From Shigella phage ESh27, in sequence record ON528737: a stretch of DNA of 64,000 nucleotides; one strand, 5' to 3'. The notes under the pieces were generated by a model that was not told where the DNA came from, searched no databases, and worked only from the letters and a program-made list of their open reading frames with translations. The position numbers and the translations under genes are program-made. Of this stretch, positions 38,984-41,890 are shown piece after piece. Within the stretch, counting starts at the first letter, position 1, and every line of letters starts with the position of its first letter.

Positions 38984-39727
38984 TTACCTTAAACGGCCTT
39001 TAACATATCCATCTGGGATGGATAACGGATTTACTAATTTATTTATAGCCCCGTTATTTACCCATATTCTGCCGGTGGTCGTAGGTTTTACTTCACAACC
39101 CTTTCTAGATTTTCTATTAAGTTGGACCATTCCTTTTACAAATCCTTCAGGCATCGGGTCCTCGGCTGATATAAATCTGTTTTCTTTACCGTTGTTAACA
39201 CAAATTTTATTTAGAGTTGTAGGATTTTTAGGACCTTTAATTTTATCAATCTTTGGCTTTCCTGTACCATACCGCCCGTGGCATGTTGGGTCTTCAGAGT
39301 ATCGACGTTTATTTGTTTCAGATAGTTTTCTTTTTGTTTCTTCCGATCTGTGTTTTCCTAAAAGATTATGACCAAGCCTCTTTATTCGTTCTTTAGCACT
39401 ATTAGACATTTTAGTCTTATCAGCTTCGGTGTACTTATACCTTCCACCTTCACCGCCTTGGCGCATATTATAATACTCGTTAGATTTGACCAAATCCTCT
39501 GTTACTAACTGAGCTTCGTATTCTAAAGCTTCAGCGGAAGTTTCAAATTGTTTAATTATTGAACGTTTAAATGATTCTTCTCCGTATTTTTTGATAGCGC
39601 GATTTAAGGCAACACCTGACCCTAGATACGAATCATTTAAATTTTCTGTAGAATGTTTGCCAATGTACTTTTTACCATTGATTAAATTTACGGTCTCATA
39701 AACAAAGTGATACATACTCTTTTCCAT
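38984..39727 (-). CDS. GIY-YIG family homing endonuclease (SegE-like)
   Basis: GIY-YIG N-terminal module (FVYETVNLINGKKYIGKHST...YLGSGV...N...E) and basic DNA-binding C-terminus; start taken at ATG 39725-39727 (alternative 39713-39715, MYHFVYET); track start 39766 lies upstream of the late promoter. Confidence 0.7.
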   Translation of the reverse strand: MEKSMYHFVYETVNLINGKKYIGKHSTENLNDSYLGSGVALNRAIKKYGEESFKRSIIKQFETSAEALEYEAQLVTEDLVKSNEYYNMRQGGEGGRYKYTEADKTKMSNSAKERIKRLGHNLLGKHRSEETKRKLSETNKRRYSEDPTCHGRYGTGKPKIDKIKGPKNPTTLNKICVNNGKENRFISAEDPMPEGFVKGMVQLNRKSRKGCEVKPTTTGRIWVNNGAINKLVNPLSIPDGYVKGRLR

Positions 39728-39743
39728 GTAATAAATATAGTTA

Positions 39744-39751
39744 TATTTATA
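39744..39751 (-). promoter_or_regulatory. T4-type late promoter (TATAAATA) for the GIY-YIG endonuclease gene
   Basis: Plus tatttata = minus TATAAATA, ~17 nt upstream of the endonuclease ATG. Confidence 0.55.
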
Positions 39752-39764
39752 ATGAGGAAATATC

Positions 39765-40433
39765 ATGATCGATAAAGACTATATTGAAGAGTTACGTGCT
39801 CTTTCTGATAAAAAGGAAGCCAAAGCTAAACTGTTCGAATATGCGAAACAATTTGGCATTAGTGTTAAGAAAACAAAATCATTCGATAATATTGTTATTG
39901 ATATCGAAGAAGCTCTTAACGCACTGGCTGATGAACCGTTACCTGAAACTGATGGATTATCTATTACTGATTTAATTACTGCCGCAGATGATGTGGACGG
40001 TGTTAATTTCACCAACGAAGAAGTTAAAGAAGAAGCTATTCTGTTGTTTGATTCTCCAACAGAACAAGTTGAAGTATTAGAAGTTGTCGAACAAGAAAAA
40101 GAATTCGACCATGATAAATTTGAAGAAGCAATTACTCAGGTTGTTGAATCTGAAAAGGAGCCTGAGACAGAGGTAAATAAAGAAGTAAAATTTGTTCTGC
40201 CTGAAAATTTTAGTCCTACACTCATTAAATTAGGCAAAGGCCTAGGATATGTTACTGTTCCTTGGTGGATTTATCAATGGATAGCCGAAACACCTGATTG
40301 GAAATCTCGCCCAACCAGTTTTGTGCACGCTTCTGCTCACCAAACATTATTTAGCTTAATTTATTATATTAATCGCGATGGATCAGTTCTAATTCGTGAA
40401 ACTCGTAATTCTTCTTTCATAACATTAAAATAA
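39765..40433 (+). CDS. inh: Inh, inhibitor of prohead protease gp21
   Basis: 222 aa acidic protein immediately upstream of hoc, as T4 inh. Confidence 0.7.
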   Translation: MIDKDYIEELRALSDKKEAKAKLFEYAKQFGISVKKTKSFDNIVIDIEEALNALADEPLPETDGLSITDLITAADDVDGVNFTNEEVKEEAILLFDSPTEQVEVLEVVEQEKEFDHDKFEEAITQVVESEKEPETEVNKEVKFVLPENFSPTLIKLGKGLGYVTVPWWIYQWIAETPDWKSRPTSFVHASAHQTLFSLIYYINRDGSVLIRETRNSSFITLK

Positions 40434-40442
40434 GGATAACTT

Positions 40443-41858
40443 ATGACATTCACTGTCACGTTATCTCCTTTAACTCCTACAGGGGTTATTGGAGGTTCAC
40501 AAACATTCACTGCTACACCTGCAGGTGAAACTCCAGATGGTACTATTACATATGTCTGGACTGTAGATGATATAGCACAGGAGTCTACGGCTGCTACAAT
40601 GGATTATACTCTTGCTTCTCCGGCAGGAACAAAAAAAATTAAAGTGGTTGCAACTAATACACTTTCCGCAGGAGATCCGGAAATAGCTGAAGCGTCAACA
40701 ACTATCACTGTTAATAAGAAAGAAAATAATTCTACCGTCGCTGTTACTCCGGCTTCTCCGGCGGCAGTAGAAATTGGAACAGCAACAACATTCACTGCTA
40801 ATGTAAGCAATCAACCTAGTGGTGCTGCTATTGCTTATACATGGAAAGTTGATGGGGTCGCTGTTGATGGTCAAAAGCAATCAACCTTTGAATATACACC
40901 AACAACTGAAGGAACTAAGTCTATAACTTGCTCTGTCACAGTGACTGCAACTGATTACGTTGATAAAACAGTAGAATCATCAGCGGTTTCTTTGACTGTA
41001 AATAAAAAGGCTAATTCTTCAACACTAAAAATTACGCCTGAGTCTCCGACTACAGTCTTTGGTGTTCCTATTACTTTAACTGCAAATGTCTCCGGTGCAC
41101 CTTCAGGTGCTACTACATCATTCCAGTGGTCAATGGATGACAGTAATATTCCAGATGCAACTTCTGCTACGTATAAATTCACTCCAACCGAGGTCGGAAG
41201 TAAAACTCTTAAATGCACCGTATCTGTTTCTGCATCAAATTATGTTACAAAAGAAATTTCAGCAGAAGCAACAGTAGTAACTAATAATGCTACATTTAAT
41301 AGTGCCACCATTTCTTTATCTCCCCCATCAGTTAATACTACTGTTGGTGGAACTGCAACTTTAACAGCATCTGTTACTGGTGCTCCAGGTGATACTAATA
41401 TTGTGTATTCTTGGAAGAAAGACAACGTAGCAGAAAGTAATTCTACTAATACTTACAGTATTGATACCTCCTCAGCTGGTACTCATACAATTAAAGTTGA
41501 AGCAGTATTAACTAAAGATAACTATACTTCAAAGACAATTAGTTCAACCGCTGAAGTTGTTATTGCTGAACGGACTCCAATTGAACCAGAAGGTGAACTA
41601 CCTTATGTTCATCCTCTTCCACACCGTACTTCAGCTTACATCTGGTGTGGTTGGTGGGTTATGGATGAAATCCAAAAAATGACTGAAGAAGGTAAAGATT
41701 GGAAAATTGACGATCCAGGTAGTAAGTATTACTTGCATCGTTATACGCTTCAGAAGATGATGAAAGACTATCCAGAAGTTGATGTTCAAGAATCACGTAA
41801 TGGATACATCATCCATAAAACTGCGCTAGAAACTGGTATCATTTATACATATCCATAA
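40443..41858 (+). CDS. hoc: Hoc, highly immunogenic outer capsid protein, with four tandem Ig-like repeats
   Basis: 471 aa; four ~95-aa repeats each with TFTA/TLTA..(S/T)G...Y.W...D pattern, plus C-terminal capsid-binding region; T4 Hoc is 376 aa. Confidence 0.85.
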   Translation: MTFTVTLSPLTPTGVIGGSQTFTATPAGETPDGTITYVWTVDDIAQESTAATMDYTLASPAGTKKIKVVATNTLSAGDPEIAEASTTITVNKKENNSTVAVTPASPAAVEIGTATTFTANVSNQPSGAAIAYTWKVDGVAVDGQKQSTFEYTPTTEGTKSITCSVTVTATDYVDKTVESSAVSLTVNKKANSSTLKITPESPTTVFGVPITLTANVSGAPSGATTSFQWSMDDSNIPDATSATYKFTPTEVGSKTLKCTVSVSASNYVTKEISAEATVVTNNATFNSATISLSPPSVNTTVGGTATLTASVTGAPGDTNIVYSWKKDNVAESNSTNTYSIDTSSAGTHTIKVEAVLTKDNYTSKTISSTAEVVIAERTPIEPEGELPYVHPLPHRTSAYIWCGWWVMDEIQKMTEEGKDWKIDDPGSKYYLHRYTLQKMMKDYPEVDVQESRNGYIIHKTALETGIIYTYP

Positions 41859-41864
41859 TCGTAA

Positions 41865-41890
41865 GGGGCTTCGGCCCCTTTCTTCGTTTT
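41865..41890 (+). terminator. Intrinsic terminator after hoc (GGGGCTTCGGCCCC + T-rich)
   Basis: UUCG-loop GC hairpin followed by tttcttcgtttt. Confidence 0.75.

Follow-up and report, generated by a model that had tools for sequence, protein, structure and literature searches.

The RB69-type Hoc of Shigella phage ESh27 carries four Ig-like modules on a T4-like C-terminal domain

Introduction

In phage T4, the C-terminal domain of the head outer capsid decoration protein Hoc, whose structure and contacts with gp23* have been described, occupies the centre of every gp23* hexamer, with one monomer per hexamer, while the Ig string forms a flexible, acidic, projecting fibre (PMC10385173). The Ig modules bind weakly and reversibly to bacterial surfaces and to mucin glycans, and they influence virion dispersion (PMC10385173). 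Hoc proteins are acidic in general, with pI values of ∼4-5, and the value given for RB69 Hoc is 4.72 (Table S1 of PMC10385173).

T4 Hoc (376 aa; PDB 5VF3 and 8T1X) has three Ig modules. The sole crystal structure of Hoc Ig domains, that of RB49 Hoc (PDB 3SHS), covers three N-terminal Ig domains, and the Hoc of phiPNJ-6 is of the three-Ig T4 type, not four-Ig (PMC13248984). Across Hoc homologs, the number of Ig domains ranges from 1 to 10, with great variability even among close relatives of T4 (Fokine et al. 2023, PMC10385173); the Hoc of Serratia phage Muldoon has 1174 aa and 10 Ig domains, and short Hocs have one or two (PMC10385173). In the literature that we searched, outside which lie the primary Hoc papers of 2010/2011, we found no specific account of a four-Ig Hoc from Mosigvirus.

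Here, we analyzed hoc in a 64,000-nt stretch of Shigella phage ESh27 DNA (record ON528737; hereafter, the window), and we compared the results with an earlier reading made from the letters of the window without database searches (the sequence-only reading).

Results

The ORF list of the window places hoc at 40443..41858 on the plus strand, with an ATG start and 471 codons followed by a stop; the sequence-only reading had set this length against the 376 aa of T4 Hoc, and both lengths are correct. The product matches PHROG 1149 ("Hoc-like head decoration"; E=1.9e-136) and is 100% identical in amino acid sequence to the Shigella phage ESh27 entry (cluster P0001), and the gene shares 97.7% nucleotide identity with RB69 hoc and 98.1% with phiC120 hoc. 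The order of genes in the window (uvsW, a seg-like ORF, inh, hoc, 24.3, 24.2, rnlB, and gp24) is also the order annotated in RB69, the seg-like ORF excepted, and its inh-hoc-24.3-24.2-rnlB portion is a conserved one. The nucleotide identity to RB69, the ESh27 and PHROG 1149 matches, and the gene order together identify the gene as hoc and its source as an RB69-like (Mosigvirus-type) T4-like phage. By these sequence criteria, 40443..41858 is assigned as the RB69-type allele of hoc, encoding the predicted head outer capsid decoration protein of a Mosigvirus-like genome. RB69 Hoc itself (AAP76093.1, GenBank AY303349) also comprises 471 aa, with four modules and a C-terminal domain, occupies the equivalent genomic position, and differs from the window protein by nine amino acids (T2A, T155S, P237L, S265T, A375T, R377Q, I422T, D423E, and G426D). 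The window Hoc has a computed pI of 4.80; it is acidic, as is T4 Hoc, and the two phages have inh-hoc synteny in common.

Directly 5' of hoc and co-oriented with it lies inh (39765..40433, +; ORF list and RB69 annotation), which encodes the inhibitor of the prohead protease gp21, and hoc begins 9 nt downstream of its end. Inspection of the sequence revealed an AAGGA motif at 40432..40436 (+), 6 nt before the hoc ATG and overlapping the inh stop codon, which would be a putative Shine-Dalgarno element. Five nucleotides past the hoc stop, at 41863..41890 (+), is an intrinsic-terminator-like hairpin (AAGGGGC-TTCG-GCCCCTT) with a T-rich tail. A perfect T4 late promoter (TATAAATA) was not found on the plus strand directly upstream of inh/hoc; a candidate with one mismatch, AATAAATA, is present at 39730-39737 (+), within a 50-nt stretch that is conserved in other phages, and its end is 27 nt upstream of the inh ATG. 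Across the window as a whole, TATAAATA is enriched, with 19 occurrences observed versus 7.6 expected. Antisense ORFs of 61-87 aa within hoc were considered and set aside.

The 260-aa ORF between uvsW and inh (38984..39766, −) resembles seg-like homing endonucleases, with domain matches to SegE_GIY-YIG (E=8.4e-7), GIY-YIG, and NUMOD3. RB69 lacks this endonuclease upstream of inh and has only a 50-nt spacer at the site, whereas in T4 GT7 the corresponding position is occupied by segE. Of 50,697 phage records, only 10 contain a full-length copy with at least 99% identity, and such a scattered distribution is what mobile homing endonuclease genes typically show. The listed start of the ORF overlaps the inh start by 2 nt; translation probably begins at M14 or M18, which lie downstream of a TATAAATA on the minus strand at 39751-39744.

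When cut at its recurring ...TVNKK... junctions, Hoc resolves into four modules, D1-D4, and a C-terminal domain. The first module, D1 (aa 1-93; 40443..40721, +), is the distal tip of the fibre, and it is delimited as an Ig-like module by its first-module class in a module tree, by its AlphaFold2 (AF2) fold, and by its alignments to D2-D4 (z∼11). It is followed by D2 (aa 94-189; 40722..41009, +), an Ig/PKD-like module supported by a Pfam PKD match, by orthology to T4 domain 2, and by AF2; by D3 (aa 190-286; 41010..41300, +), an Ig-like module marked by a gap in the T4 alignment, by AF2, and by Foldseek; and by the capsid-proximal Ig-like D4 (aa 287-380; 41301..41582, +), supported by orthology to T4 domain 3, by the module tree, and by Pfam. 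The remainder (aa 381-471; 41583..41855, +) is the capsid-binding domain at the C terminus.

The sequence-only reading had proposed four Ig-like repeats of ∼95 residues, and three lines of evidence bear this out, namely (i) pairwise alignments, (ii) motif periodicity, and (iii) predicted folds. All six pairwise local alignments among D1-D4 (∼95 aa each) gave z=10.7-22.7, with none of 300 shuffles reaching the observed score, whereas alignments of the repeats with the C-terminal domain gave z=0.2-3.1 in the same shuffle test. These module-wise comparisons were used because a self-BLASTP of the whole protein returned the diagonal HSP only, probably through HSP culling. The motif T[FL]TA recurs at residues 21, 116, 211, and 306, and [YF]xWxxD recurs at residues 37, 132, 227, and 322, with a period of exactly 95 residues in both cases. 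While this periodicity agrees with the T(F/L)TA... pattern that had been proposed, a literal regular expression of that pattern yielded 0 matches and a relaxed form matched D2, D3, and D4, but not D1, so the pattern as written is approximate.

An AF2 model of the whole protein, built on a 20-sequence alignment, contains four confident beta-sandwich blocks at residues 4-91, 98-187, 194-281, and 289-375, with pLDDT values of about 88-96 (87-95 for D1, 88-96 for D2, and 91-96 for D3, all in context). Confidence is low in the C-terminal domain (pLDDT 32-60), since the alignment is nearly invariant in that region. In a Foldseek search of the PDB, the whole model matched four-Ig strings, including Dscam1 Ig1-4, ICAM-5 D1-D4, and Sidekick-2 Ig1-4, as well as RB49 Hoc (3SHS; Foldseek E=9.4e-11, phmmer E=6.7e-5, about 16% identity).

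In the domain prediction that had been proposed as a check, the whole Hoc scored above the Pfam gathering cut-offs of Ig_3, I-set, PKD, and Ig_2, the best stretches for Ig_3 and I-set being residues 290-360, within D4. Scanned singly, D2 passed the cut-off for PKD (25.3 versus 23.5 bits), whereas the best match of D3, Big_7, remained below it (21.7 versus 24.1 bits), as did those of D4 to Ig_3 (25.6 versus 30) and I-set (21.8 versus 23.7), and D1 had no Pfam match. Because D1, D3, and D4 fail the cut-offs singly, we assign them as Ig modules from the fold models and from their paralogy to D2. Taken with the alignments and models, these data confirm that Hoc carries four Ig-like beta-sandwich modules plus a capsid-binding C-terminal domain.

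To locate the module that is extra relative to T4, we used phmmer against PDB sequences, which aligned residues 1-191 of the window Hoc with T4 Hoc 1-191 and residues 289-471 with T4 194-376 (5VF3 chain Z). The internal block of ∼97 residues left unmatched is D3, for which T4 Hoc has no counterpart. Amino acid identity between the matched segments is 62% for D1 with T4 domain 1, 56% for D2 with T4 domain 2, 44% for D4 with T4 domain 3, and 97% for the C-terminal domains; at the DNA level, blastn finds no T4 match for 40781-41582, a stretch that covers most of D2 and continues through D4.

Could the additional ∼95 residues be linker sequence, a spacer of low complexity, or an extension of the N terminus, which would leave three domains, as the sequence-only reading had itself asked? 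The composition of the D3 region, rich in T, S, A, and V, and the failure of D3 alone to reach any Pfam gathering score would fit such a view. However, the T4 alignment shows the inserted block to be internal and of module size, its TLTA and FxWxxD motifs keep the register of the other modules, and its alignment to D2 has the highest z value of all module pairs (z=22.7). The block is also confidently modelled, both in context and alone (pLDDT 88.7, pTM 0.76), in the latter case as an eight-strand sandwich, which in Foldseek matched Ig/PKD-like domains with query-normalised TM scores of 0.6-0.81, among them the phi29 capsid Ig-like insertion, an N4 capsid chain, and ColG PKD domains. Given the alignment gap in T4, the confident AF2 model, and the TM scores of up to 0.81, the extra length is a real domain, a whole internal module that folds as an Ig-like sandwich, and we consider it almost inconceivable that it is a linker or an extension.

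The sequence-only reading had further attributed the fourth repeat to a domain duplication. This holds in the sense of deep paralogy, but not in the sense of a recent copy. Within these proteins, D3 is at most 38% identical to any other module (to D2; 34% to T4 domain 2), and direct DNA repeats in hoc reach at most 30 nt, at 64-79% identity. A bootstrapped neighbor-joining tree of Hoc modules separates three classes, for the first, middle, and last positions; D3 is sister to the whole of the middle class, with 54% bootstrap support, and falls outside the clade that unites T4 D2 with RB69 D2. The low identity, the lack of long DNA repeats, and the position in the tree point to D3 as an ancient paralogue of the middle module, and on this evidence D3 is best described as an old, strongly diverged member of the middle (D2-type) class rather than a fresh copy. 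A recent, phage-specific, and possibly unstable tandem duplication of D2 would account for D2 being the closest paralogue of D3 within the window Hoc, and young duplications of middle modules do occur in other lineages, in T4-type Hocs of 472 and 568 aa (74-80% identity). Set against this are the D2/D3 divergence, the placement of D3 apart from the D2 clade, and the sharing of the four-module architecture by RB69 and about 30 sequenced phages with 95-98% nucleotide identity, which together make a recent duplication highly improbable.

Searches with D3 alone addressed its distribution. By tblastn, matches with at least 90% identity occur in only 30 phage records, with all others below 60% and the best listed at ∼44%. 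A HMMER search of 1.84 billion representatives returned 3171 proteins at E≤0.001, a ranking dominated by giant multi-repeat proteins, many of which contain 10-37 similar repeats, and among the 150 matches listed none exceeded 45% identity to D3. Such proteins are plentiful as potential donors, and D3 could have been imported horizontally from an Ig-repeat protein other than Hoc, for instance an adhesin of a bacterium or some other surface protein of a phage. Yet the 150 listed matches are no closer to D3 than are its sister Hoc modules, all of the tblastn matches in phages fall within hoc genes or capsid-protein annotations, and D3 has the Hoc-specific junction and motif register, so that we regard an import of this kind as very improbable. 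The preferred origin of D3 remains within the middle class of Hoc modules.

In contrast with D3, the C-terminal domain has a close T4 counterpart. Residues 381-471 share 97% identity with residues 286-376 of T4 Hoc and match PHROG 21694 (E=2.6e-40), in agreement with the capsid-binding C-terminal region that the sequence-only reading had placed after the repeats. We infer the capsid-binding role purely from this identity, and by the same analogy the protein would occupy gp23* hexamer centres as one monomer each and would be dispensable for growth. The genes that flank hoc share only 76-83% DNA identity with T4. Comparison of 41583-41858 with Tequatrovirus records (LF82-1, LH01, and others) suggests either intergeneric exchange or very strong constraint, including constraint on synonymous sites.

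The comparison of repeat number across T4-like phages, which had also been proposed, was made on the 120 closest clusters at 90% identity, 119 of which could be parsed into modules. By length, the proteins form three classes, of about 376, 471/472, and 567-570 aa, and the parsed clusters have three (79 clusters), four (31), or five (9) Ig modules. The extra repeat had been described as one more than expected; this is true relative to T4, but not for the RB69 lineage, where four is the norm. Muldoon-type long Hocs and the short Hocs, which we compared by description only, resemble the window protein in combining a conserved capsid-binding domain with a variable number of Ig domains and differ from it in the number and sequence of their modules.

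Several of these Hocs are mosaics of window-type and T4-type modules. The 567-aa proteins of CCU7 (PV806175) and cluster P0002 have the composition T4D1-T4D2-wD2-wD3-wD4 (w, window); they hold window D2, D3, D4, and C-terminal domain at 94-100% amino acid identity and, unlike the window, start with a T4-type D1 and an added T4-type D2, which brings their Ig modules to five. The 472-aa proteins of pEB20 and P0013 read T4D1-T4D2-wD2-T4D3, and the 376-aa P0010 reads wD1-wD2-T4D3. In DNA, CCU7 is 96.7% identical to the window hoc from nt 265 to the end, but only 64% before, which places its breakpoint exactly at the D1/D2 junction, and pEB20 is 87% identical over nt 265-567 and then has no match until the C-terminal domain. 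These breakpoints, nt 265 and nt 567 of hoc (window 40707 and 41009; codons 89 and 189), correspond to the D1/D2 and D2/D3 junctions, and they suggest exchange of whole modules at ...TVNKK... junctions. The repeated middle modules of P0019 (472 aa) and P0004 (568 aa), T4-type Hocs with four and five modules, respectively, are 74-80% identical to each other, and the corresponding duplications are much younger than the D2/D3 pair of the window (38%).

In two Mosigvirus records, a20 (OQ067374; 1420-2835) and OLB35 (MH992122, UNVERIFIED; 1495-2625), hoc is annotated as two or three CDS fragments, which reflect either frameshifting sequence errors or natural pseudogenes.

The module counts and mosaics also bear on the direction of change, for which a gain of D3 in the RB69 lineage and a loss in T4 are equally possible. 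In its full form, the loss scenario would have four Ig modules as the ancestral state, with the 376-aa T4-type Hocs having lost a D3-type module and no gain in the window. The basal position of D3 to all middle modules would make it older than the split of T4 D2 and RB69 D2; P0010, in which an RB69-like D1-D2 is joined straight to a T4-type last module, indicates that precise deletion or replacement of modules happens; and Hoc is non-essential, with fragmented genes in a20 and OLB35. However, most clusters (79 of 119) have Hocs with three modules, three is also the number of Ig domains in the more distantly related RB49 Hoc (PMC10385173), and the basal position of D3 is weakly supported (54%) and could reflect fast evolution. 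We therefore consider this scenario unlikely overall, although it is the rival that we take most seriously.

Discussion

Our analyses very probably describe an RB69-type Hoc in which four Ig modules stand on a T4-like anchor, with D3 an old paralogue of the middle class and the Ig string of a cassette-like nature. By homology with T4, Hoc would be a monomeric fibre whose C-terminal alpha/beta domain docks at the centre of a gp23* hexamer, and from there D1-D4 would project outward from the capsid as a string of beta-sandwiches, with D3 inserted between D2 and D4, which are orthologous to T4 domains 2 and 3, respectively. Since the T4 fibre measures about 180 Å for four domains, an extra module would add roughly 45 Å, for a total of about 225 Å. 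D3 may thus lengthen the fibre by roughly one domain, and, by analogy with the T4 modules, it may add one weak-adhesion surface for glycans or bacterial surfaces. The longer fibre and the changed adhesion that the sequence-only reading had put forward are thus reasonable expectations.

The finding of a four-domain Hoc is correct but already known. A protein identical to that of the window is already public and variable numbers of Hoc domains have already been published, so a four-Ig Hoc is ordinary. The most interesting by-product is the pattern of cassette exchange, with its junction breakpoints and its discrete classes of three, four, and five modules. The mosaics, these classes, and the DNA divergence from T4 characterize the Ig string as a hypervariable modular region on a near-invariant capsid-binding domain. 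We read the string as a cassette array in which whole modules have probably undergone duplication, loss, or exchange through in-frame recombination at ...TVNKK... junctions. In a stronger version, the Hoc Ig string of co-circulating E. coli/Shigella Mosigvirus and Tequatrovirus phages would be a true cassette system, whose ∼96-aa modules are duplicated, deleted, and exchanged between genera in-frame at the junctions, and in which D3 is a lineage-restricted module with a ligand specificity of its own, possibly ancestral and lost by T4. We advance this version tentatively, as a plausible proposal that falls slightly short of being the probable one.

For work on RB69-like phages in display, mucus adherence, or pharmacokinetics, the practical consequence is an additional fibre module, D3, at aa 190-286. 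Because D3 has no T4 counterpart, T4 residue numbering and T4 glycan-binding data do not transfer to this segment. The three-, four-, and five-module classes, together with the junction breakpoints, provide a compact natural dataset on how fibre length and module identity relate to adhesion. If the cassette reading is true, the length and module content of Hoc would be a selectable, rapidly reassorting trait for adherence to surfaces and mucus.
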